Source of the DNA: Lama guanicoe
Taxonomy: Eukaryota
Assembly (NCBI GenBank): GCA_013239625.1
Contig: MU053933.1
Span: 2,257,026 to 2,321,025, forward strand
DNA: 64,000 nucleotides
Direction: 5' to 3'
The position numbers were made by a program, and so were the translations under genes. The notes under the pieces are model-generated. The model had not been told where the DNA came from. It did no database searches and saw only the letters and a list, made by a program, of their open reading frames with translations. Positions 1-60,730 of the stretch are shown here, piece after piece. Positions within the stretch are counted from its first letter, which is position 1; each line of letters opens with the position of its first letter.

Positions 1-562
1 GGTTATTTTTGTTTTTAAGTATAAGAAGGTAGCATGAGTATATTTATCCTAAAATTTGAAAATACGAATGAAATATACCATGTTCAAAAAACATGTAAAC
101 TACCTACATTGGCTGACAAAATGAAAGAAAAAATTTTAGTCCAATAGGATTATTACCTTTATTTGGCAAATATACTGAAGATCTGTTCTGTTTCAAATAT
201 GGAAATAGATTTTTTTTCCTAGTCAAACAAATTTTATTGAAAAAAATTTTAATACAACACAATCCAAAGAAAAGTTGAAAAGATGTTGAAAGATCTGATT
301 CTCCAAAAGGCACAGACTCAGTTCTCAAGGTGTAGGGAACCCATCAGCCTTCAGCACGGAGGCCTTTCCTGTAATACTGCAAACATCCAGAGCTCAGAAA
401 GAAACAGAAGTTTTCTGGGCTTATCTCATAAGGCTGGCAAAACCCCGATGCCAAAACCAGCCAGGAGAGAGAGAAACTGACTAGTGACCTATGTCATGTA
501 AGAGATTGTAAATAATGTTTTAGCAAATTTAATATGGAGATACATTAAAAGAACAATATGCC

Positions 563-3802: not shown

Positions 3803-4615
3803 CACCCACCAGAATGGTCATCATCCAAAAGTCCACAAATGATAAGTGCTGGAGAGGCTGTGGAGAACAGGGGACCCTCCTCCCCTGCGGCTGGGAATGT
3901 AGTCTGGTGCAGTCATTTTGGAGGACAGTATGGAGATTCTTCAAAACACTAAAAACAGACTTACCCTATGAACCAGCAATCCCACTCCTGGGCATATTAT
4001 CTGGAGGAAACTCGAATTTGAAAAGACACCTGCACCCCAATGTTCATAGCAGCACTATTTACAATAGTCAAGACATGGAAACAACCTAAATGTCCACCCA
4101 CAGATGACTGGATAAAGAAGTTGTGATATATGTATACAGTGGAATACTACTTAGCCATTAAAAGAATAAAATAATTCACTTGCAGCAACCTGGATGGACC
4201 TGGAGATCATCACTGTAAGTGAAGTCAGCCAGAAAGAGAAAGAAAAATACCATATGATATCACTCATATGTGGAATCTAAAAAACGAAAAGGGGGACACA
4301 TATGAACTCATCTACAAAACAGAAACAGACTCACAGACATAGTAAATAATCCTATGGTTACTGGCGGGGAAAGAGGTGGGAAAGGATAAATTTGGTAGTT
4401 TGAGATTTGCAAATATTAACCACTATATATAAAAACAGATTAAAAATGAGTTTCTTCTCTATAGCACAGGAAACTATATTTGGTACCTTGTAATAACCTT
4501 TAATGAAAAAGAATATGAAAATGAATCTATGTATGTATACGTATGACTGAAACAGATGCTGTACACCAGAAATTGACGCACTGTAACTGACTATATTTCA
4601 ATTTTTAAAAAATTA
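3803..4615 (+). mobile_element. 5'-truncated LINE-1 (ORF2 C-terminus plus 3' UTR)
   Basis: Translation includes [40 protein letters not shown], typical of the L1 ORF2 C-terminus; the L1 3' UTR ends in an A-rich tail and matches the copies at 12995 and 59900. Confidence 0.9.
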
Positions 4616-4917: not shown

Positions 4918-4924
4918 TATAAAA
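4918..4924 (+). promoter_or_regulatory. TATA box of KRTAP10 copy 1
   Basis: TATAAAA about 90 bp upstream of ATG 5011, followed by a CA-rich KRTAP10-type leader. Confidence 0.8.
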
Positions 4925-5010: not shown

Positions 5011-5556
5011 ATGGCCGCGCCGGCCCTGTCCACCTGCTCCGGCGACCTGAGCTACGGCAGCCGGGTCTGCCTGGCCGGTCCCTGTGACTCCTGCACCGGC
5101 TCCTCCTGGCAGGTGGACGACTGCCCAGAGAGCTGCTGCGAGCCCCCCTGCTGCGCCCCGGCCCCCTGCCTGAGCCTCCTCTGCGCCCCAGCGAGCTGTG
5201 AGCCCTGCCCCTGCCCATCTGCCTGCACCAGCTCCTGCACGGCCTTGTGCTGCCCGCAGTCTAGCTGCCAGCCCTCCTGCTGCACCTCCTCCCCCTGCCA
5301 GCAGGACTGCTGTGAGCCCGTGTGCTGCAGGCCCGTGTGCTGCAGGTCCGTGTGCTGCACGCCTGTCTGCTGCAGGCCCGTGTGCTGCAGGCCCGTGTGC
5401 TTCACGCCTGTCTGCTGCAGGCCCGTGTGCTGCAGGCCCGTGTGCTGTGAGCCCACCCCCTGCCCCTCGTCCAGCTGCAGACCCTCCTCTTTCGTGTCCC
5501 TGCTCTGCCGCCCCAGGTGCTCCCGCTCGGCCTGCTGTGTCCCCGACTCGGCCTAG
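5011..5556 (+). CDS. KRTAP10: Keratin-associated protein, KRTAP10 family (181 aa, single exon)
   Basis: MAAPALSTCSGDLSYGSRVCLAGPCDSCTGSSWQVDDCPESCCEP.. N-terminus, CCRPV pentapeptide repeats, Kozak context GCCATGG, TATA box upstream. Family member number not assignable. Confidence 0.93.
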   Translation: MAAPALSTCSGDLSYGSRVCLAGPCDSCTGSSWQVDDCPESCCEPPCCAPAPCLSLLCAPASCEPCPCPSACTSSCTALCCPQSSCQPSCCTSSPCQQDCCEPVCCRPVCCRSVCCTPVCCRPVCCRPVCFTPVCCRPVCCRPVCCEPTPCPSSSCRPSSFVSLLCRPRCSRSACCVPDSA

Positions 5557-5885
5557 AAGTCCGGCTGCTGACCGGGCCCGTCCCCCCCAGGGCTAGCCGG
5601 GCTCTAGGGTGCCTCAGCTGAGGGGCTGAGCTCAGCGATACTAGCATTTGGCGTCCTCCAGGAGTTTAACCCCCAGAAAAGACCTGGAGACCATCTCCTC
5701 TGTGTCACCAAGAACAGGGACTCCACGTCCTCTGGGGTCTCTCAGGAGTTGCTGCCACGGTCATCCCAGAACCTACGCGCAGGCCTGAGTCGTGGAAGCG
5801 GGTCCTGTCTCTCCTAGCCCAGCAGCTTCTCCCATTCCCACCCCTCCTCCACCCCGCCCCTTCTCCAAGCCGAGCCTTTCCTGCA

Positions 5886-6819
5886 NNNNNNNNNNNNNNN
5901 NNNNNNNNNNNNNNNNNNNNNNNNNNNNNNNNNNNNNNNNNNNNNNNNNNNNNNNNNNNNNNNNNNNNNNNNNNNNNNNNNNNNNNNNNNNNNNNNNNNN
6001 NNNNNNNNNNNNNNNNNNNNNNNNNNNNNNNNNNNNNNNNNNNNNNNNNNNNNNNNNNNNNNNNNNNNNNNNNNNNNNNNNNNNNNNNNNNNNNNNNNNN
6101 NNNNNNNNNNNNNNNNNNNNNNNNNNNNNNNNNNNNNNNNNNNNNNNNNNNNNNNNNNNNNNNNNNNNNNNNNNNNNNNNNNNNNNNNNNNNNNNNNNNN
6201 NNNNNNNNNNNNNNNNNNNNNNNNNNNNNNNNNNNNNNNNNNNNNNNNNNNNNNNNNNNNNNNNNNNNNNNNNNNNNNNNNNNNNNNNNNNNNNNNNNNN
6301 NNNNNNNNNNNNNNNNNNNNNNNNNNNNNNNNNNNNNNNNNNNNNNNNNNNNNNNNNNNNNNNNNNNNNNNNNNNNNNNNNNNNNNNNNNNNNNNNNNNN
6401 NNNNNNNNNNNNNNNNNNNNNNNNNNNNNNNNNNNNNNNNNNNNNNNNNNNNNNNNNNNNNNNNNNNNNNNNNNNNNNNNNNNNNNNNNNNNNNNNNNNN
6501 NNNNNNNNNNNNNNNNNNNNNNNNNNNNNNNNNNNNNNNNNNNNNNNNNNNNNNNNNNNNNNNNNNNNNNNNNNNNNNNNNNNNNNNNNNNNNNNNNNNN
6601 NNNNNNNNNNNNNNNNNNNNNNNNNNNNNNNNNNNNNNNNNNNNNNNNNNNNNNNNNNNNNNNNNNNNNNNNNNNNNNNNNNNNNNNNNNNNNNNNNNNN
6701 NNNNNNNNNNNNNNNNNNNNNNNNNNNNNNNNNNNNNNNNNNNNNNNNNNNNNNNNNNNNNNNNNNNNNNNNNNNNNNNNNNNNNNNNNNNNNNNNNNNN
6801 NNNNNNNNNNNNNNNNNNN
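5886..6819. other. Assembly gap (934 N)
   Basis: Run of N. Confidence 1.
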
Positions 6820-11119: not shown

Positions 11120-11126
11120 TATAAAA
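11120..11126 (+). promoter_or_regulatory. TATA box of KRTAP10 copy 2
   Basis: TATAAAA about 96 bp upstream of ATG 11216. Confidence 0.8.
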
Positions 11127-11215: not shown

Positions 11216-11866
11216 ATGGCTGCGTCCGCCCTGTCCACCTGCTCCGGCGACCTGAGCTACGGCAGCCGGGTCTGCCTGGCCGGTCCCTGTGACTCCTGCA
11301 CCGGCTCCTCCTGGCAGGTGGACGACTGCCCAGAGAGCTGCTGTGAGCCCCCGTGCTGTGAGCCCCGCTGCTGTGAGCCCCGCTGCTGCGCCCCGGCCCC
11401 TTGCCTGAGCCTCCTCTGCGCCCCAGTGAGCTGTGAGCCCTGCCCCTGCCCATCTGCCTGCACCAGCTCCTGCACGGCCTTGTGCTGCCTGCAGTCTAGC
11501 TGCCAGCCCTCCTGCTGCACCTCCTCCCCCTGCCAGCAGGACTGCTGTGAGCCTGTGTGCTGCAGGCCTGTGTGCTGCAGGCCCGTGTGTTGCAGGCCTG
11601 TGTGCTGCAGGCCCGTGTGCTGCACGCCTGTCTGCTGCAGGCCCGTGTGCTGCAGGCCCGTGTGCTGTGAGCCCACCCCCTGCCCCTCGTCCTGCTGCAG
11701 ACCCTCCTCCTCTGTGTCCCTGCTCTGCCACCCCGTGTGCAGACCCGCCTGCTGTGCCCCCGCCCCCTCCTGCCAGCCCAGCTGCTGCCGCCCAGCCTCC
11801 TGCGTGTCCCTGCTCTGCCGCCCCAGGTGCTCCCGCTCGGCCTGCTGCGTCCCCAACTCGGCCTAG
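11216..11866 (+). CDS. KRTAP10: Keratin-associated protein, KRTAP10 family (216 aa, single exon)
   Basis: MAASALSTCSGDLSYGSRVC.. with CCEPR and CCRPV repeats and an extra C-terminal module (HPVCRPACCAPAPSCQPSCCRPASCVSLLC); TATA upstream, AATAAA at 12138. Confidence 0.93.
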   Translation: MAASALSTCSGDLSYGSRVCLAGPCDSCTGSSWQVDDCPESCCEPPCCEPRCCEPRCCAPAPCLSLLCAPVSCEPCPCPSACTSSCTALCCLQSSCQPSCCTSSPCQQDCCEPVCCRPVCCRPVCCRPVCCRPVCCTPVCCRPVCCRPVCCEPTPCPSSCCRPSSSVSLLCHPVCRPACCAPAPSCQPSCCRPASCVSLLCRPRCSRSACCVPNSA

Positions 11867-12137
11867 AAGTCCGGCTGCTGACCGGCTGGTCTGCCGGCCT
11901 CTCTCCAGCTGCTGTCTTTGACCCTGAGCCCAGCTGTCCTCTCTCAGGAGCCCCGGAGCCTCTCTGCTGGCGCCAGGACCTCCCCTCTCTCGTGGGTGGA
12001 CACACAGCTGATGCCTAGAGGGGACTTGAACATGCCGCCCACAAACCCCTCAGCTGGGGGGACTGCTGGCCCTGGGAGCCCTCCTCTGCAGGGTTAGGTG
12101 CTTGTATTTCATGTGTCAAAGGTCAACTGCCATCATC

Positions 12138-12143
12138 AATAAA
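12138..12143 (+). terminator. Polyadenylation signal of KRTAP10 copy 2
   Basis: AATAAA about 270 bp after the stop, followed by GT-rich sequence. Confidence 0.7.
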
Positions 12144-12994
12144 ATGTTTGTGTGGGGAAATACGGACCCATGTCTACTTCATCCTCCTCCCTGAGCCACT
12201 CTGACCACTCCAAGTCTGGGCAGTCGGGCTCTGTCTGGTAAAAACCAGGCAATGAGGACATAGTCTCGAATCTGAGCGCAAAGCAGCTGAGAAACAATAG
12301 GGTCTCAAAGAGGACGCCAAGTGCAGGCTCCATGTCCCCTCCTCCCCCAGGGCCCCCTCCCCATGGCAGACAGCCTGCCAAGGCCAGCACAGGGCTCGAG
12401 TCGGGTGCAGAAGGCTTAGACCCCAAGTGCACCTTGGGCCTCTGCTCACGCCCACCCCCTGCCCGTCCAGGTGAGAGGTGACTTGGGGAGCAGCTGAAAC
12501 CCTGTTTGGTCGGGATCTGAGAGTCCAAGACTAGCCCTGTGCTGACTTCTGTTGGAGAGAGGCGCCCTCATGGAGGCTCGCCTGTGTGCCGGGCTGCGTA
12601 TGAGTCCCTGTGGGCCTCAAGGGGGTCCAGGGGTTGGTTCAGACATCACTTGTTCTGCTCAGGGTTTCAAGGTCTGATTGGGAAGGCACAGAGAAGAAAG
12701 ACAGCTTGGGAACAAACCCTCAGAACAGCGGGCAAGGGTGAGCCAGCCATCTCAGTGGAGCTGGCGTCACGTGGGCTGCACTCAGACTGACCGGGTCAGC
12801 ACCGGGCACCCTTCCTATCCCTTCATCAGAAAGGAACTGATGAGCCCACTGGATCAGAAGGATAGTGGAGACCAGGAGCAGAAGGCACCCCCCGAGTCGG
12901 GGGTTGTAACCCCCACCCCCACCCCACCCCACTTTAGCTCTAACCAGGGAAGCGAGGACAGAGCAAAGGACCCTGAAACAGAGAGTGGCTGGAT

Positions 12995-13581
12995 ACATGC
13001 ACCCCAGTGCTCAGAGCAGCACTGCAAACAACAGCCAAGACATGGAAACAGCCTCAGTGTCCATCGACAGATGACTGGATAAAGCATCTGTGGTGTATGT
13101 ACACAATGGAATACTACTCAGCTATAAAAAAGAATAAGGTAATGCCATTTGCAGCCACATGGATGGACCTAGAGATCGTCATTCTAGGTGAACTAAGCCA
13201 GAAAGAGAAAGAAAAATACCGTAGGATATCACTCATAACTGGACTCTAAAAAAGAGAAGAAAAGAGGACACTATGAACTCATCTACAAAACAGAAACAGA
13301 GTCGCAGACATAGTAAACAGTCTTACGGTCACCAGGGGAAAGGGGGTGGGAAGGGATACTTTTGGGAGTCTGAGATTTGCAAATGCTGGCCACTATATAT
13401 AAAAATAGATTTTTAAAAGTTTCTTCTGTACAGCCCAGGGAACTATATTCAATATCTTGTAATAACCTTTAATGAAAAAAATATGAAAATGAATATATGT
13501 ATGTATATACATGACTGGGACATTGGGCTGAACGCCAGAAATTGACACACTGTAACCGACTACACTTCAATTAACAAAACA
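12995..13581 (+). mobile_element. 5'-truncated LINE-1 3' end with target-site duplication
   Basis: Same L1 3' end as 3803-4615; flanked by AAACAGAGAGTGGCTGGAT (12976-12994) and AAACAGAAGGTGGCTGGAT (13582-13600). Confidence 0.9.
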
Positions 13582-16269: not shown

Positions 16270-16529
16270 TCAGCAGCAGGAAGGGACACCACAGGGGATG
16301 GGTCTGCAGACCAGGGCGGGGCAGGAGGGCTGGCAGCACCCGGAGGACTGGCGGGAGGGGGCCACACACACAGGGGCTTGCAGCTCACGGGCAGCCGTGT
16401 GGTCAGCTTGCAGCTCACAGGCACGCACACGACAGGCCTGCGGCTCAGTGACACACAGCAAGTCTGCCGGCAGGGGCCGGGCTCACGGCAGGCCGGCCGG
16501 CAGCCCGCAGAGCAGCTAGTGTGGCACCT
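16270..16529 (-). pseudogene. KRTAP12: KRTAP12-family pseudogene
   Basis: Minus strand reads AGG-TGC-CAC-ACT-AGC-TGC where paralogs have ATG-TGC-CAC-ACC-AGC-TGC (MCHTSC). It ends VCVAPSRQSSGCCQPSCPALVCRPIPCGVPSCC*. The 260-nt span is not a multiple of 3, and the TATA box is altered to CATAAA (16631-16636). Confidence 0.85.
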
Positions 16530-17988
16530 GGAGGTGAGGCGCTGAGGTGGGGCCAGGACTGAGGGCTGGGTGCTTTGCGTGATAGCCCAAAGACTCAGGG
16601 CTGGGCTGGAGGCTCCTCCCCTGGGTGACCTTTATGCCCGGGCCATGGCCTCCTGGCCACAAGGCACGCGAGCGCCCTCCTCCCGGCCGCCTGCTGTTTT
16701 TCCTCCTCGTCCCTCCCCACAGTCTCTTCCTGGAGTTCCCGGTGGAAGTGACCCAGTTCGGGAAGCTCCTTCTCAGCGGGAGGCACCCAGTGACACAGTG
16801 GTCCTGCGACTTCTGTGATTGGAGCCTGGGCTGGATAGGGAAGGGCCACCACGTGGGGACGGAAGTCTCGCATCGTATTTTCAGGGTCCGCCCCAGTTGT
16901 AAGGACCCTGTGTCCGTCTGCACAAGCACAGCGTCCCCAACTTTGATGCGGAAACTCGGTGATCCAGGAGGTTCTTCCGCAGGGTTGGGCTCCTCACTGG
17001 GAGCCGCAGCCACATTACTGCCACGATCGCAGCGACGGGGTTCCAGCTTCGTGCCGGGGCTGAGCTAAGCGTTTCACGTGGACCCCCTTGTAACCGATTA
17101 ATGACCAGTCCTGCCACCGCCCGGGGGCGGCTGGAGCCCCGTGTGCACAGGCGGTCCCTCAGGGCGATTCAGAAGGAGCCCATGACGGGCGCACGGTCTC
17201 AGCGCTGAGACGGAGAAGCAGGTACTTGGAGGTGTCAGCCCCCTGGGTCCCGGGTCCTCACATTGTGCCGCATGCGCTGGGGCCCTGGGCGTGTGCTCTG
17301 AGATTCCTGCATCTGTCAATTGGAATTTTTTTTTAAAAAGTCAAATTTGGGAATTTTATCTGCTATTTCTTCCCAGTTTTCTTATATATCAGTGTCATTC
17401 TCCTCTCCTCCCCAGGCAGAAATCACTTGCACGTTAGCCTCTCTGATGTTGTCTCACAGGCCTCCTCATCTTTCTTAGCTCCTTGTCCCCCTTCTTCAGG
17501 TTGGATGATTTCCACTGACGTGTCCTCAGGTCCACCGAGCCTTTCCTCTATCAGCCCAGGGTGGTGACGCCTGCTCCTCGGTTCCCACGGTCGGAATCCT
17601 CCACCGGCCCCCGCACCCTGTCGGCCCGAGCTGTGGGATTCCCCACTGCCCCTGGAACTGCCCGTTTCTGCAGCCGTGTCCTCACAGCCCCCTGGCTGCC
17701 TCTGCCTGGAGCGCCGCCCCAACCCCCTCTCTGGACGCAGAGCCAGCTCAGCGTCGCCTCCCCTCCCGAGGCCCCCAGACCACCCACCAGCTCCCCACTT
17801 CTCTCCACCTGCTGAGCCTGCTCTCCTTTCCGGGACTCAGCCCCTCTGGAATCATCTCATGCACGAATGTTTCATGCACTCATTTGCTCACTGCCCTGGA
17901 AGGCTCAGGCGGCGGGGGCATCTCTCTCGCCAGCACGCAGTGTAATTTGTTGCATGAACGAACCAGCTCTTGTACTGATTACTGTGAA

Positions 17989-18586: not shown

Positions 18587-18934
18587 ATGTGCCACACCAG
18601 CTGCTCCTCCGGCTGCCAGGCTGCCTGCTACGTGCCCAGCTCCGGCCAGGCGTCCTGCTGCACGTCCAGGCCCTGCCAGGCGTCCTGCTATGTGCCCCTG
18701 ACCTGTAAGCCAGCTGTGTGCGTGCCCGTGAGCTGCAGGCCCGTGTGCCTGCCCGTGAGCTGCAGGCCCACCGTGGGTGTGGCCCCCTCCTGCCAGTCCT
18801 TTGTGCGTGTGCCCGTGAGCTACAAACAGGTCGTGTACGTGGCCCCCTCCTGCCAGTCCTCCGGGTGCCTCCAGCCCTCCTGCCCTACCCTGGTCTACAG
18901 ACCCTCCTCCTGTAGCACTCCCTCGTGCTTTTGA
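18587..18934 (+). CDS. KRTAP12: Keratin-associated protein, KRTAP12 family (115 aa)
   Basis: MCHTSCSSGCQ.. start, VCVPVSCRP repeats, APSCQSSGC.QPSCPTLVYRP..STPSC end; GCCACCATG, TATA box, AATAAA at 19188-19193. Confidence 0.92.
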   Translation: MCHTSCSSGCQAACYVPSSGQASCCTSRPCQASCYVPLTCKPAVCVPVSCRPVCLPVSCRPTVGVAPSCQSFVRVPVSYKQVVYVAPSCQSSGCLQPSCPTLVYRPSSCSTPSCF

Positions 18935-19257: not shown

Positions 19258-20773
19258 GTTATTTTTCCCCCACTAGAGAGCAGTTTATCATCTTTAGACT
19301 CAAGGAATTAAAGGCGTGGGTGCAGACTATGCCAGGCCCAGGGCGTTGCGGCTCCTGGGGGCAGGCCCAGCTGCAGCAACGTGCAGGGAAATGGCGGGGC
19401 AGCAGTCAGCAGGTTTGGTCTTCAACGTGGGGGGAAGGAGCGATGATTTTGGGGGCTGGGGAGCAGCAGGAAGAAGAAAGTGGTCTGAGGAGGGGGTGGG
19501 GCCCAGAGGGGCGGAGTTGAAAGGGAAGAGGAAGGAGGCCCCTCCCCACGCACGGTGCTGAGGAGAAGGCACTGGGCTCAGTCTCCTCCTGCCCCGCCCC
19601 CACCCACAGAAGACGGGGGTGGGGGTGGGGGGGTCCTTGTCTCCTCCTCCTTTCAGGGGCCCAGAGGCTGTTTCCGGCTGAGCCTTTAAAAGATTCTGTC
19701 AAACTCATACGTGCTGATCATGGTGGCGCAGGAGGGAGCAGCCTTGAGGGTCCTCAGGAGGAAGCCTGTGAAGAGTCCCCTGGTGCCGGCTCGGCCTGGG
19801 TCCCCTGCAGCAGCAGCCAGGTGGAGTCGGCGTGCGGGGGCATCGCTCTCACTGCCTCCACGGCTCCCCGCGTGACCTGGCCTTGAGTCTTCACCACATC
19901 GAAGGGTAGAGTCGGGGTGGCCACCACCGTCCCCGAGATGCCGCCAGCCACAAAGCTGATGCCCACGGAGGTCTGGTCCTTTGGCCTGAGCCCGCTCAGC
20001 CAGCCCTTCACCAGCTCGTGACTGAACCAGTACAGGGCTGAGAAGGGCACATCCCGAAGGGCAGTGGGACCCCAGTGAGCCACAGCGAGCGCCAGCCGCC
20101 CTGAGCCACAGCAGCTCGGACACAGGTGCCCAGCTCCCGGTACACCAGCTGCCGAGCCTGCAGCTTTGTCCGCACCAGCTCCAGGGGGCTGGCCACAGTC
20201 ACCGTGCCCAGGCGGGCCAGTGCACCGGCCACCATCGGTGCACAGAGGTCTGAGGTCAGGGCTCGACCACACAGGAAGGCCATGAGCTGGCCATAGGCGG
20301 TGGAGCAGACGGTGGCCGCTGGCACAGTCACACCAGGGTGGCTGGGCGGCCACTCCACAGGGTCCTGGTGCCCTCGTGTCCCACAGTCTTCACAGAGGCA
20401 CCCGTGGTGCCAGCGAAGCAAGTGGGGTCCTGACACCCGGCGGCACAGCGGGCACCCCTCGGGCCCGGGACGGCGCGGAGCACAGGAGGCGCTTCCCCGC
20501 GGGCTGAGGGGAGCAGGGCAGTTTGGTGCCGGAGAGGCTGCAGAGTCCCGGGGTGGGGGGCAGTAGCTCGCGGGCCCCCGAGGGGCCATGAGGAGGGAGG
20601 GCACCACAGCCCCAGCGCCCGAGGCCGCCATCTGTTGGAGGGGGCTGATGGCCCCGGCCCTGGTCACCGCCTTGCGGCCTGGGGTCTGGCTCCAGGCCGG
20701 CACCCGCGCGGCGGGTGATCGGGGCCGGGCGGGCCCGTGGCGGCTCCGCGGCCAGCGTGGGGTCCGCGCCAGC
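19258..20773 (-). pseudogene. SLC25A39: Processed pseudogene of mitochondrial carrier SLC25A39
   Basis: Intronless, frameshifted pieces: ISPLQQMAASGAGAVV, FLCGRALTSDLCAPMVAGALARLGTVTV.SPLEL.RTKLQA, WGPTALRDVPFSALYWF..ELVK..RPKDQTSVG.SFVAGGISG, LPFDVVKTQ, KAAPSCA.MISTYEF. Premature TAA at about 19686; 5' and 3' UTRs present; 15-bp TSD TTGAAGTTTTCTTCT at 19243-19257 and 20774-20788. Confidence 0.92.
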
Positions 20774-20788
20774 TTGAAGTTTTCTTCT

Positions 20789-20913
20789 TTTTTTTTTTTA
20801 ATTGTTTGTTTTTTGGAAGGAGGAGGTAATTAGGTTTATTTATTTGCTTGTTTTCTGTAATGGAGGCACTGGGGATTATGCCCAGGACCTCCTGCATGCT
20901 AAGCACACACTCT
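20789..20913 (-). mobile_element. Vic-1-type SINE, 5'-truncated
   Basis: Reverse strand reads GTGCTTAGCATGCAGGAGGTCCTGGG..CCCCAGTGCCTCC..AAATAAACCTAATTACCTCC followed by poly(A). Confidence 0.85.
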
Positions 20914-24901: not shown

Positions 24902-25210
24902 ATGGGCTGGACCATCGGCCCCGAGGGCTGCCAGCCGGGCTGCGCCAGTCGCCCGGGCTGCGTCCCCATCTGCTGCCCTCCCCTGTGCTGTGGGGTGGCC
25001 ACCCCCAATGAGGCCACGCTGTGCTGTCCTCTGGGCTCCATGACCACCTCCTGCCACCCGGGCTGCGACCCTCAGTCCCTGTGCAGCCCCGCCTGCAGCC
25101 CTGCCTGCTGCACATCCCTGAGCTGCCAGCCCGAGGCCTGTGAGGCCGCCTCCTGCCCCACCTGCATCTGCCTGCCCTCCTTCCTCTGCGCCATCCTCCC
25201 CTGCTGCTGA
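24902..25210 (+). CDS. Divergent Cys/Pro-rich keratin-associated-protein-like gene (102 aa), family unassigned
   Basis: Intact ORF MGWTIGPEGCQPGCASRPGCVPICCPPLCC..LPCC*, 23 Cys in 102 aa, strong Kozak CACCATGG, KRTAP12-like TATA region, TGC-TGC-TGA end and AATAAA at 25385-25390. Confidence 0.75.
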   Translation: MGWTIGPEGCQPGCASRPGCVPICCPPLCCGVATPNEATLCCPLGSMTTSCHPGCDPQSLCSPACSPACCTSLSCQPEACEAASCPTCICLPSFLCAILPCC

Positions 25211-33580: not shown

Positions 33581-34680
33581 ATGTATATGATAAGCGTAGC
33601 TTCCATACTTTCTAAGTATTCTGGCTTAACATGTCATCGAGATGATACAGAAATGGTCATCACTGCAGAAACCCTTCAGCCCTTCACCCAAGGGGTCCAG
33701 CCAGCTTCCCTCACCCCGCAGACGGCGCTCTTCACCTGCTCCCCGAGCCTGGCCTTCAGGGTCCACCTGACCAGCCCCCTCACTTCCACAGTGGCTGTGC
33801 TGTCCCAGCCGCCCTGCCTGCTGGCCTCGCTGACCAGCGGAGGCCCCACGGGCACCCTGCCACCACCCCCGACCTGTGCAGCTGCCCTGCCCGTCGCACC
33901 TGGCAGCGTCTGGCGCAAAGAGCATTGGGATGCTGTTCCCTGGACCCCTGAGTGTCCCACTGGAGTGTCCCAAGAGCCCATGGACAGAGTCCAGGCTCAG
34001 CCCCCGGGAAAGACGCAGTGGAGGTGGGGCTGAGTCTGAGAAGACAGACGGAGAGGCGGGAGGGGAGGCAGAGAGAGCCCCAGCAAGCACGAGGCCTGAT
34101 CGATCCTCAGGCACCGGGGAGCCTGAGCGGGAGCCCCGCTGTGGGGGCGAGAGGGGAACGTTGCCAGCCGCACCTGACCGAGCCTCGGCTGGGCCACCAC
34201 GCCGGCTGCTGCGGCCAACGCCACAGAGGTGCAGAGAGCCCGCAGGGTGCAACGGGGAGACACTCTGAGCAAGGGGGCCACAAACATCCCCGCCTCGGAG
34301 ACGCCGTCTGTGCGGAGAGCAGCACAGAGTCTGCTGTCTCGCCGCATCCTTCCCTCCGGCCAGGGCCCAAGACAGGGCCGCCGGCCACCGCCACCGCCAC
34401 CGCCAGGGCCTGCCCTGGCATCTCCACCCTCCCTCGTCTGCAAGGACTCGATGACAAATGCAAAAGAAGGGGAACCACACGCCCCAGAAAGGAGCCACTT
34501 CCAGGTCCCAGAATCCAAGTTACCCCCCTTTCCGGATCACCAGGTCCCCAGGATGAGCGCCCAATGGCCGAGAGCACCCCGACCCCCACCCCCGCCTCGT
34601 CTCCAGCTGACCTGGTTCTCCCACACCCACTCAGCACGTGGTCAGGACCCGTCCTGTGGCCCCAACACACAGCCGGGGCT

Positions 34681-34812
34681 TTTACGAGCTGGGCCGCATC
34701 TCCTGGGAAAACAAGCGGCCCTAATGAGGGAGCCCAGGACCCGGACACCAACCGGGAAGGGCGGGCGTGGGGCCTCTGCTGGGGCAGCACGTGACACAGA
34801 GCAGGGATAAAA
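34681..34812 (+). promoter_or_regulatory. Proximal promoter of KRTAP10 copy 3 (HOX13-type site; GATAAAA TATA variant)
   Basis: TTTACGAG at 34681-34688 (reverse complement CTCGTAAA); GATAAAA at 34806-34812 in the position where paralogs have TATAAAA. Confidence 0.55.
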
Positions 34813-34884: not shown

Positions 34885-35415
34885 ATGGCCGCACCCTCCC
34901 TGTCCACCTGCTCCGGCGACCTGAGCTACGGCAGCCGGGTCTGCCTGGCCGGTCCCTGTGACTCCTGCACCGGCTCCTCCTGGCAGGTGGACGACTGCCC
35001 AGAGAGCTGCTGCGAGCCCCCCTGCTGCGAGCCCCTCTGCTGTGAGCCCTGGGGCTGCGAGCCCCGCTGCTGCGCCCCGGCCCCTTGCCTGAGCCTCCTC
35101 TGCGCCCCAGCAAGCTGTGAGCCCTGCCCCTGCCCATCTGCCTGCACCAGCTCCTGCACGGCCTTGTGCTGCCCGCAGCCTAGCTGCCAGCCCTCCTGCT
35201 GCACCTCCTCCCCCTGCCAGCAGGACTGCTGTGCGCCCCTCTGCTGCAGGCCCGTGTACTGCAGGCCTGTGTGCTGCACGCCCGTGTGCTGCAGGCCCGT
35301 GTGCTGTGAGCCCACCCCCTGCCCCTCGTCCTGCTGCAGACCCTCCTCCTCCGTGTCCCTGCTCTGCCGCCCCAGGTGCTCCCGCTCGGCCTGCTGTGTC
35401 CCCGACTCGGCCTAG
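34885..35415 (+). CDS. KRTAP10: Keratin-associated protein, KRTAP10 family (176 aa, single exon)
   Basis: MAAPSLSTCSGDLSYGSRVC.. with CCEPx and CCRPV repeats; GCCATGG; AATAAA at 35778-35783. Confidence 0.93.
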   Translation: MAAPSLSTCSGDLSYGSRVCLAGPCDSCTGSSWQVDDCPESCCEPPCCEPLCCEPWGCEPRCCAPAPCLSLLCAPASCEPCPCPSACTSSCTALCCPQPSCQPSCCTSSPCQQDCCAPLCCRPVYCRPVCCTPVCCRPVCCEPTPCPSSCCRPSSSVSLLCRPRCSRSACCVPDSA

Positions 35416-38400
35416 AAGTCCTGCTGCTGACCGGGCCTGTCCCCTCAGGGCCAGCCGGGTGCTATGGGCACCTCCCTGACCATTGCTGGCCCCCCACGCC
35501 ATCCTCAGAAAGCACCCCAGCCCGAGCTCTGGTATGCACCTCTGCATGAACGTTCACTGACCTCAGACCCCAACAAGCAGGGCTTAGCCCGTCTGTGGCC
35601 TCCACATTAGGCGCAGATGGATGTGAGATGGCCCTCCCCTACTACCAGGGGCCCCCAGGTTACCCCTGACAACCACTGACCCCGCTCTTCCTCCCAGGCT
35701 TGGGGCCGTACTCTGCCCTGTCGCCCCCTCCCGCTGCTCTGCGCCCCCTCTTTCCTGCAGGCATCTTGAGCTGAATGAATAAACATCCTTGTGTCAATTA
35801 GTTCTCTCTCCCAACTAGTTTTATTCCATTATTCCCGGCCCTTGGGGAACATAAGTAACTCTGGCCTCAGCGAGCTTGGAGACAAGCCACGTCCTGGGAG
35901 CACTTCTGAGGGTTCTGAGGTCTGAGGCCCAGCTGGTCGTTTCCAGGGCCCTTGACTCCCGCGTCTGTACGCCAGGCAGCTCTGGGTGGCTGTGCCATGT
36001 GTCTGAGACTCCGGCGGCCAACGCCACCTGGTGAGCAGGCCCCTAGGTGAGAAGGCCCCCTGCCATAGGCCTGGCTCTCCCTGGTCACTCTGCGGACATG
36101 CAGGGGCCAGGGCCCACGTTGGCTTCCGGCCCGGAGGCAGGCTGGGACTGTCACCCACTGGGACACAGCTGACGTTGAGCATTTCTGCCATCCACCAGCG
36201 TCCTGTGCTTGTCCTCCACCTCCCCTTGAACTCTGCGCTTTATTCAATGTTCAGATGTCCCAACCTGCTTTGTCTGTGCCAGACAGGCTGATGACAACAC
36301 CCCCTCCCCGCCCCAGGTCCAAGCTGGGTGTGGTCGAGGTCAAGGAGAAGAGGCCAGGGGGTAGGTGACTCCCAGGCCCACACTCCAGGGTCTGAGGGCC
36401 AGGCTTGCTGCCTGAGGTTCACCCCGGGGGTGCCCCACGTTTCCTGGGGCCCCAAGCTTCCGATGCCCAGCCCTCGCTCCTGAACAGAGCCACTCCCTCA
36501 CCTTCCTTCCAGCTGCCTCCACTCTCCACTGGTCCTACCTCTTAGCTCGTGACCCGACCCTGCCCTGCTATTGACATGAAGAGCTGCCCTCCCTCCCCAG
36601 AGGCCTCAAAGTCCAGCAAGGTGGTCCCCAAGGGGAGGGAGCAACGGTGAAAGCCCGCTCACTCAGAGCAGGCCTAAGACATCGCCTGACCCGCCCACAG
36701 TGTCCCCTGGAGAACCTGGTCCAGACTCCCTGGGCTGGGCTGGCTGTTCCAGGGTCACTGTGCCCCCCACCCGATAAAAGGAGGTCCCCAGAGAACCTGT
36801 CAGTAGAAGGAGGGCCCCCCGCGACTAGAATCGGGTGGTGGGAATGGGTGCAGACAGACCAGCACCCAGCCCTGCCTCCATATTCCAGGGCTGCAGAGGC
36901 TGGTGGGAGTCCCGGCCCCTGCTTGCCCGGGGACCCTGCCCATCTCCTGGGACCCTCCCAAGGAGGTGGAGGTGTGAGAAATCAACTCCCCCAGCTGTCA
37001 CAGGGCTCAGCCCACCAGGGCCCCCTCTGCCCCTTCACAAGTCGCCCTCAGGCCAACTTCACCAGCCCCGTCCCCCAGAGGACTGAGGAGGCCCCGACTT
37101 CCTGTGCACCCTGCCCCTCTGGTCAGTTAATGAAACCCTTGGGCCCCTTCTCAGAAACACGAATTTCAATGCACAAAATACAATGCTCCAGATTTCCAGG
37201 GGAGACCACTGTGTGCAAACACAGTTACTAAAAAGGAATTTGTTTAGAACGAGCAGTGAGACGTGGGCCTTTCCATCAAGGCGTTAACTAAACAGGGGAG
37301 CGGGGCCTCAGGTGGACGGCGGAGGGAAGTCTGCTCGCATCTGTGATGGGACACGAGGGTGCCGGCGGCTCCGCAGGTGACAGTCCCGGGTGTTACCCTC
37401 GCTGGGAGCTGCTGCGTCTGGTTAGTTATGAAGACGAAGGTGCAGTGCCTCCCACCCAAGTTCAAGGCCCCTGGATTCCATGCCCCGATCCTGGATGGAG
37501 CCAACTGGGTCGGGGACAGTGCCCACTGAGACGGGGGCAGCGGCCAGTCACCGATCCAACGACTGGTGACCCTCCCCCAGGGCACCCCAAACTCAGCGCT
37601 TGACCCCCAGAGGCATCCCGGGGGGGGTCGTTCCGTAGTGCAGGGGCTCCTCCAAGCGCCCGCCAGCGCCCCACCCCCACGCGGCTGCACCCGAGCCGGG
37701 ACACCCGCGGACCCAGAGCCCAAGCCCCGGCCCGTGCAGCTGGCCCACCCACCTGGGGCCGAAGACCCTTGAAGAATTTCCCGTCTACCTCAGTCTTCTG
37801 CGCTGCCACGGCCGCTGCAGAAACCACTGAAAGGCGCGTGGCCAAAATGACACCAGAACCTGGCTATCTGCGTGGATGTGCATTGGGTTCTTCCCTGCGT
37901 GTGCACAGACGCCCACGTGGTCACACACCTGCGCACTCACATCCAGGTGCACGAACACCGCCCGCCCTCCCCTCAGCGCAGGACGACCCTGGTCCTCGAG
38001 CCCCGCAGACCCTCCAGGTTGGCAGCCGCCCCCCGTTCAGCGGGTGCAACGGAGAGGCCCGCGTGGTGCAGCCAGCCGGGAGAGGAGCAGGCAGTCGGAG
38101 CTGCCCCACCCCGCCCAGAGGTGGGCAGCCTTTGGGGTCACTTCTCCTTCCCCCTCTGTCACCGGAGCCCGAGCTGGGGCAGAGGGGGCTCACGGGGCTG
38201 CAAACCATCCGTGGAGTCACCTTGGGAGGCGAAGCGGGCATTCTTTCCCCCGCCCACCTCCCAGCGGCGGGCGGGTGAGTGTCCCTGACACTGCCTGAGA
38301 TGTTCATCAGACCTGACTCCCTGGAGACTCCCACGAAGTCCCTCCCCCAGCGCAGAGCTGCCCGGGCCTCCTCAGCACCACTCCCGGCCCGACCCAGGAT

Positions 38401-59749: not shown

Positions 59750-60730
59750 GACACTTGCATCCCCCAAATTCACACACTGACGCCCCACCCCAACGTGACA
59801 GTGTTTGGAGCTGGGAACTTCAGGAGGTAATTGGGTTCAGATGGGGTCATGAGGGTGGGGCCCTCACAGTGGGATTTGTGTCCTTACCAGAAGAGGGAGA
59901 ATGGAGGACAGTAAGGAGGTCCCTTAAAAAACTAAAAATAGACTCACCCTGTGATTCAGCCACCCCACTTCTGAGCACACATCCAGGGAAAACTATAACA
60001 TGAACAGACACCTGCACCCCGTGCTCACAGCAGCACTGCACACAGCAGCCAAGACGCGGAGGCAACCTCGGTGTCCACCGACAGGTGACGAGGTAAAGCA
60101 GCTGTGGTATGTTTATGCAGTGGAATACTACTCAGCCATAAAAATGACCAAATAATGCCATTTGCAGCAACGTGGATGGACCTGGAGATGATCACATCAA
60201 GTGAAGTCAGACAGAGGAAGACAAATAGCATACGATATCACTGACATGTGGAATCTAAAAAAAAGACACAGATGAACTTACTGGCAGGTCAGAAACAGTC
60301 TCACAGACACAGAAACCAAACGGGGAGGGGGGAGGGATGGGCAAACTGGGAGCTTGGGATCGGCAGATACACATTACCATTTACGTATAGGTAACAAACA
60401 AGGCCCTACTGTGCCGCACAGGGAACTACATTCAGCATCTGTAATAACCTATAATGGGGAAGAATTGAGACGAAGAAAATACACACGCATGTGTCTGTAC
60501 GACTCAACCGCTTTGCTGTTCGTCTGAAACTAACACTGTACATCAATTACACATCATTGAAAAAGAAAAAAGATGTGGGAGAGGCCAGGCCTTCCTCTCC
60601 GCCCCGCGAAGACCCAGCGAGAAGGGGCGCCTGCAGGCCAGGGGCGCTTCTCACCTGAGTCCGGCCTCGACCCTGGGCTTTCGGGCTCTGGACGCATGAG
60701 AAACACACGTCTGTCGTTTCCTGTGGCACC
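59750..60730 (+). mobile_element. MaLR LTR interrupted by a 5'-truncated LINE-1 (L1 about 59900-60570)
   Basis: MLT-like 5' part (CCCCCAAATTCAC..GAGGTAATTGGGTTCAGATGGGGTCATGAGGGTGGGGCCCTCA), then the L1 ORF2 end and 3' UTR with A tail, then the MLT-like 3' part resumes. Confidence 0.7.

Follow-up and report, generated by a model that had tools for sequence, protein, structure and literature searches.

Three KRTAP10 genes in guanaco DNA stop at the same TAG codon, each directly ahead of an in-frame stretch that resembles the usual end of a KRTAP10 protein. Is this stop genuine and derived, and how did genes whose first and third stops lie 29,859 bases apart come to share it? We favor, at a probability of roughly 0.8, the reading in which the stop is real, is derived and was spread by gene conversion through old tandem paralogs.

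Three KRTAP10 genes and their shared stop

The window analyzed here is a contiguous stretch of 64,000 nucleotides. We identified the following KRTAP10 genes (g1, g2 and g3) and terminal elements in it:

5011..5556, + strand: KRTAP10 gene g1, 181 aa, ATG at 5011, ends DSA-TAG; PF13885 E 1e-17; TATAAA near 4918
11216..11866, + strand: KRTAP10 gene g2, 216 aa, ends NSA-TAG; PF13885 E 8.5e-26; TATAAA near 11120, AATAAA at 12138
34885..35415, + strand: KRTAP10 gene g3, 176 aa, ends DSA-TAG; PF13885 E 2.4e-14; GATAAA near 34806, AATAAA at 35778
5554..5571, + strand: g1, putatively derived TAG (5554-5556), then fossil tail KSGC and old TGA (AAG TCC GGC TGC TGA, 5557-5571)
11864..11881, + strand: g2, putatively derived TAG (11864-11866), then fossil tail KSGC and old TGA (11867-11881)
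35413..35430, + strand: g3, putatively derived TAG (35413-35415), then fossil tail KSCC and old TGA (35416-35430)

The initial annotation had described a shared TAG in front of an in-frame K-S-x-C-TGA in all three genes, and this arrangement is present in 3/3 of them, at precisely these positions. 'All three' refers to the KRTAP10 members inside the window, where tblastn and blastn searches with g1, g2 and g3 as queries returned no fourth copy. Given the published numbers of KRTAP10 rows per species, pseudogenes included (cow 15, pig 14 and horse 11, in the available part of PMC4180150, supplement 2), further guanaco members probably lie outside it.

All three reading frames are uninterrupted and contained in a single exon, with a TATA-like box upstream of each. 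The domain PF13885 (Keratin_B2_2, Cys-rich pentapeptide repeats) scores above the gathering threshold in 3/3 genes, and N-terminal and terminal blocks align without gaps to the KRTAP10-like-named proteins P0020, P0022 and P0017. The nearest Atlas clusters of g2 are named KRTAP10-12-like (score 0.96), at a recognition level under the tool's threshold. When g1, g2 and two neighboring genes were sought as exact matches in the protein collection, 0/4 were present. An AATAAA signal was found for g2 and g3; the 3' end of g1 runs into a 934-base N gap (5886-6819), which hides its poly(A) signal.

Scanning the window for the 17-base stop-plus-tail pattern gave three exact matches, all at g1, g2 and g3. 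Allowing 3 mismatches added four matches, where shuffled sequences gave a mean of 1.16 at up to 3 mismatches. In a metagenome scan for the same pattern, 6/6 matches were chance occurrences in unrelated DNA. The chance of a K-S-x-C-stop following a stop is about 9e-7 at the local base composition, for a pattern that was picked post hoc and is carried by three non-independent copies; for these two reasons the outgroup alignment provides the stronger evidence.

Ancestral state and age of the stop

We fetched 153 proteins, 10 of which, besides a relative's record (P0014, discussed below), carry the terminal VSLLC block. The homolog searches kept 13/140, 5/18 and 6/44 candidates, and the best 150 of the 189 hits of a representative search were used; the homologs retrieved are mostly chimeric predictions or partial gene models. 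Aligned gap-free from VSLLC, position 22 of the terminal block is TAG in g1-g3 and Gln in 6/10 outgroup proteins. The marsupial sequence P0019 (Dromiciops) has Gln there twice and terminates QKSCC, P0017 (Dipodomys) ends QCSC, and P0153 (Marmota) has QR at this point; P0015, P0016 and P0024 read QKPSY, QKSCC and QKSSC, respectively, and each continues beyond. Among the others, P0020 (Suricata) terminates four residues ahead of position 22, without the Gln, and in P0006, P0018 and P0021 the residue is R, P and L, respectively, followed by unrelated sequence, a run-on that probably reflects mis-spliced gene models. P0060, which falls outside the block pattern, stops even earlier than P0020.

Gln occupies the aligned position in 6/10 outgroup blocks, the marsupial included. 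A Gln-led tail is therefore what we consider most likely in the therian ancestor, making the TAG of the window a derived state. The proposal that the TAG replaced the Gln of a Q-K-S-x-C tail is thus upheld by the alignment. Its attribution to one CAG>TAG mutation holds as far as descent is concerned, in that the stop appears to be shared by descent; a single origin and a CAG rather than CAA codon are what parsimony suggests from protein outgroups.

The stop also appears to be shared with a relative. Record P0014 is a relative's chimeric gene model that is collinear with the window as far as the promoter of g3, its parts mapping in order to 18587, 24718, ~28140 and 34546-34635. These are followed by a KRTAP10 C-terminus reading VPNSA at its end, the same residue as the stops of the window. 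In one off-frame stretch 8/141 residues differ (~94% amino-acid identity), and in two further stretches, counted by eye, 5/43 residues and one codon in 32 differ. These counts suggest a DNA divergence of perhaps ~2.5-3%. Such a divergence exceeds what is expected within one species, and it might correspond to the split between old-world and new-world camelids. If the P0014 model ends at a true stop, the TAG would be common to the window and to this diverged relative. The P0014 copy at the g3 position resembles g2 of the window (it has the extra block and NSA) and not g3, which suggests that exchange among the copies went on after the relative's split.

Two alternatives bear on the reality and age of the stop. 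A base error or collapsed consensus could have placed TAG in all three near-identical copies, and GC-rich repeats of this kind and the N gap beside g1 are the setting in which this might happen. However, the copies differ right beside the stop (GAC/AAC, GGC/TGC) and therefore do not represent one consensus, and the independent record P0014 terminates at the same residue; we regard the chance of an artefact as close to negligible. Near-identical DNA occurs in sequencing runs: 14/24 rows contain at least half of the words, or 13 rows from 5 studies under 4 organism labels when the possible source X1 is set aside, and these counts carry no information on the TAG base. With the exception of one row whose RNA origin is a guess, RNA runs have only small word shares, which do not amount to evidence of expression. 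The other alternative is that the same stop was fixed in an early artiodactyl and is common to pigs, ruminants or whales, in which case it would be no camelid marker. The homologs recovered in our protein searches include no C-terminus from a non-camelid artiodactyl (sheep, cattle, pig or whale), the ruminant matches P0004, P0005, P0007, P0009 and P0011 being without the terminal block, so the TAG may predate camelids; early ends are also known in other mammals (P0020, P0060). Against a greater age, the tail still reads K-S-x-C-TGA with 1/15 columns variable, which would fit a young change better than at least 60 million years as UTR, and the other homogenized changes are missing from ruminant N-termini. 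We consider an origin older than camelids very unlikely.

Gene order, flanks and the homogenized tract

The initial annotation left open whether the stop had spread by gene conversion or by duplication. Coding sequences of g1, g2 and g3 differ by 3.3-4.3% between pairs, with 2-3 synonymous differences per pair in the first 44 codons, and the TAG plus tail differs at 0, 1 and 1 of 18 bases. Promoters differ by 36-38% between pairs, and the last 50 bases upstream of the ATG by 10-16%. In the 3' flanks the pairs are 38-55% different over the first stretch and 56-68% different farther on.

Gene order and strands agree with those of human KRTAP10-10, 10-11, the KRTAP12 genes and 10-12. The human order is KRTAP10-10(+), 10-11(+), 12-4(-), 12-3(+), 12-2(-), 12-1(-), 12p1(+), 10-12(+) (PMC2528016, supplement 1), and the positional counterparts are KRTAP10-10 for g1, KRTAP10-11 for g2 and KRTAP10-12 for g3, which lies beyond the KRTAP12 genes. 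The intervening synteny markers are:

~16270..16560 (approximate limits), - strand: probable pseudogene, a KRTAP12-like copy at the position of human KRTAP12-4 that lacks an ATG and changes frame close to its end
18587..18934, + strand: KRTAP12-like gene, 115 aa
28717..28944, - strand: KRTAP12-like gene, 75 aa

Judged by order and flanks, the g1-g3 loci would predate the split between humans and camelids. Because the loci are old, as indicated by the human order and the diverged flanks, yet their coding regions are nearly identical, we suggest that the stop spread by conversion. Of the two routes originally proposed, conversion is thus supported by the homogenized coding sequences, and recent duplication of g1-g3 is rejected on the diverged flanks and conserved gene order. 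Gene conversion has been reported for KRTAP10 (PMC4180150) and, in PMC2528016, for subfamily 10, in the portions available.

The stop would not have traveled alone. The N-terminal residues T8, G11, A22 and P24 occur in g1-g3 and in Camelus ferus P0025, which is 88% identical to g2 across 77 residues, and they are found in 1, 0, 0 and 0, respectively, of 19 outgroup blocks, a set that includes sheep and in which several blocks are same-species repeats. The TAG thus appears to belong to a set of lineage-specific changes, at least five in number, that are common to all three copies.

The homogenized tract extends 19 bases beyond the present TAG, through the old TGA and four more bases:

35431..35434, also 5572-5575 and 11882-11885, + strand: CCGG, last 4 bases common to the three copies and 3' edge of the homogenized tract; 0/4 columns vary

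In the flank just beyond CCGG, 27/30 ungapped columns vary (p 6e-8 relative to the tail, a contrast that indels inflate). Were the edge governed by coding selection alone, it would be expected to move back to the TAG eventually; 15 bases in three copies give no power to detect this, and little decay is expected yet. Separately, g1 (5572-5600) and g3 (35431-35458) have ~25 more 3' UTR bases in common that are absent from g2, and this shared UTR can pair with the fossil tail in g1, at a level not above shuffled controls.

By way of background, KRTAP10 genes lie inside TSPEAR introns, and in a bat model (P0027) a KRTAP10 start is fused to EPTP domains. Several other features lie around g1-g3. The KRTAP12 gene at 18587-18934 (+) contains a 9-residue repeat that is missing in the relative's P0014 copy. 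Amid the KRTAP12 genes there is a 102-aa Cys-rich ORF (24902-25210, +) with a TATA-like element upstream. It has no Pfam match and is absent from the protein collection; its neighbors in the Atlas, at 0.95 and with low recognition, are Keratin_B2 and KRTAP12-like, and it is possibly a divergent unnamed KRTAP. An intronless, frameshifted mitochondrial-carrier sequence at ~19700-20800 (-; PF00153), which we take to be SLC25A39-like, looks like a processed pseudogene. An AT-rich dispersed repeat is present in three copies that are 76-82% alike (~4025-4600, 12990-13570 and 59900-60315) and presumably resembles an L1 3' end, and a long (CA/TA)-type low-complexity array at ~850-1480 yields spurious His/Thr- and Cys/Val-rich ORFs.

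Consequences of the stop and related systems

The three genes most likely encode functional proteins with a trimmed end, as predicted from their intact frames. Pseudogenization was considered and rejected: the frames are intact, the stop lies 15 bases from the old end, and each gene is a single exon. For a single-exon gene with a stop this close to the old one, junction-dependent decay is not expected. The truncation had been described as removing the last Cys. The tail Cys is indeed removed, but the description overstates the loss, as it amounts to 1-2 of 47-60 Cys (47, 59 and 45 are kept in g1, g2 and g3, and 1, 1 and 2 are lost) and the proteins still end CCVPxSA. The effect at the protein level is probably small, and the loss of the tail was probably tolerated rather than selected.

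It had also been suggested that the retained tail could permit low-level readthrough, for which we find no support beyond basal leak: the stop context is UAG-A, there is no UGA-CUAG and the copies share no RNA structure. According to the available text of PMC4132726, four efficient mammalian readthrough cases have UGA-CUAG. The accessible part of PMC5829715 ranks stop fidelity as UAA>UAG>>UGA and states, for UGA, that purines at +4 favor termination. An editing hairpin at the g1 stop was considered and set aside, as the helix is not above shuffles and is not shared by the copies.

Two further alternatives would give the stop a function. In one, the TAG is leaky, and readthrough or A-to-I editing of the UAG gives a minor old-tail form that preserves the tail. 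The tail is indeed in frame with the old stop in 3/3 copies, and the g1 UAG is predicted to be paired within a long helix. However, the context is UAG-AAG in 3/3, the folding z scores are -0.23, -1.11 and +0.10 with three differing structures, and conservation of the tail does not exceed that of the adjoining coding sequence (1/15 versus 2/60 columns vary, Fisher p 0.49, a comparison of little power); moreover, the single variable tail base would change a residue. A functional leaky stop is therefore extremely unlikely, and the survival of the tail in g1-g3 may be explained by conversion and youth, though some basal leak may occur. In the other alternative, the truncation was favored: loss of the terminal Lys and of Cys or Cys-Cys alters the cross-linking of the cuticle, and the stop was driven by selection through the paralogs, against GC-biased conversion. 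The Q-x-S-x-C tail is conserved from a marsupial to placentals, the change is strong-to-weak in genes whose GC3 is 0.88-0.92, and the stop occurs in 3/3 copies and a relative. An ovine KRTAP20-2 nonsense variant is also associated with fiber curvature (PMC8657448, available portion). The C>T change runs counter to GC-biased conversion and removes an old tail, and it fits pure neutrality slightly badly, but this is a single site, too little for a claim of selection. The four other shared changes suggest that family-wide sweeps are routine, just 1-2 of 47-60 Cys are gone, and early ends exist elsewhere; favored truncation is accordingly very improbable. A broader proposition strikes us as unlikely: that the stop swept the family against GC-biased conversion because a shorter, tail-less KAP10 is favored in camelid fiber, and that the homogenized tract, in still reaching the abandoned stop, serves as a natural experiment in which the sharp edge proves to be set by inherited homology and not by present coding selection.

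For the conversion reading that we prefer, we propose the following course of events. In the camelid lineage, one KRTAP10 gene would have acquired a nonsense change at its fifth-last codon, in the simplest case CAG>TAG, with little effect on fitness. Interlocus gene conversion may then have spread the TAG among the old tandem paralogs, in the same way as the other lineage-specific residues. The genes would have stayed intact, ending five residues early, and the old K-S-x-C-TGA would now begin the 3' UTR. Two things would keep the old tail recognizable: its position within the homologous tract, which conversion continues to copy, and the youth of the change compared with the neutral decay of 15 bases.

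We found no literature on this KRTAP10 stop in our searches, the coverage of which does not extend to subscription journals, and the sole match to six C-terminal peptides in paper text was a virus paper. KRTAP10-1 is listed among camelid copy-number variants in the available part of a preprint (10.1101/2025.08.28.672513). The locus is a new example of the already known concerted evolution of KRTAPs, one in which a nonsense change clearly acts as any other substitution spread by conversion among family members would. The proposal that KRTAP homogenization halts at the stop through coding-only selection could also be tested here, as the coding sequence now finishes 15 bases ahead of the old edge. 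Should the stop be camelid-only, proteomics could use the new C-terminal tryptic peptide, which in the window reads SACCVP[D/N]SA, as a marker of camelid fiber.

Compared with known systems, the three genes are typical of KRTAP10 (KAP10) of human 21q22.3 in their PF13885 repeats, N-terminal block, VSLLC block, single frame and order with KRTAP12. They differ in that their ends lack the five residues of the Q-K-S-x-C tail that P0019, P0016 and P0024 carry, and in that they have four N-terminal residues in common only with Camelus ferus. The in-frame extension closed by a second stop is reminiscent of mammalian programmed readthrough (OPRL1, OPRK1, MAPK10 and AQP4, as described in the text available for PMC4132726). 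In contrast to those cases, g1-g3 have UAG-AAG and not UGA-CUAG, they share no RNA element, and the extension is apparently the ancestral C-terminus, not a vertebrate-conserved extension behind a conserved stop.

The closest parallel is the concerted evolution of high-cysteine KRTAPs, as presented in the accessible portions of PMC2528016 and PMC4180150 and, for KRTAP1, of 10.1101/282418, with which g1-g3 share homogenized coding sequences, diverged flanks, high GC3 and lineage-specific changes in all copies. What differs from the cases in those portions is that the change swept through g1-g3 is a stop codon. KRTAP1 conversion tracts have sharp limits at both the start codon and the stop codon, with no moved stop in the part of that report available, whereas the edge in g1-g3 lies at the former stop plus four bases.
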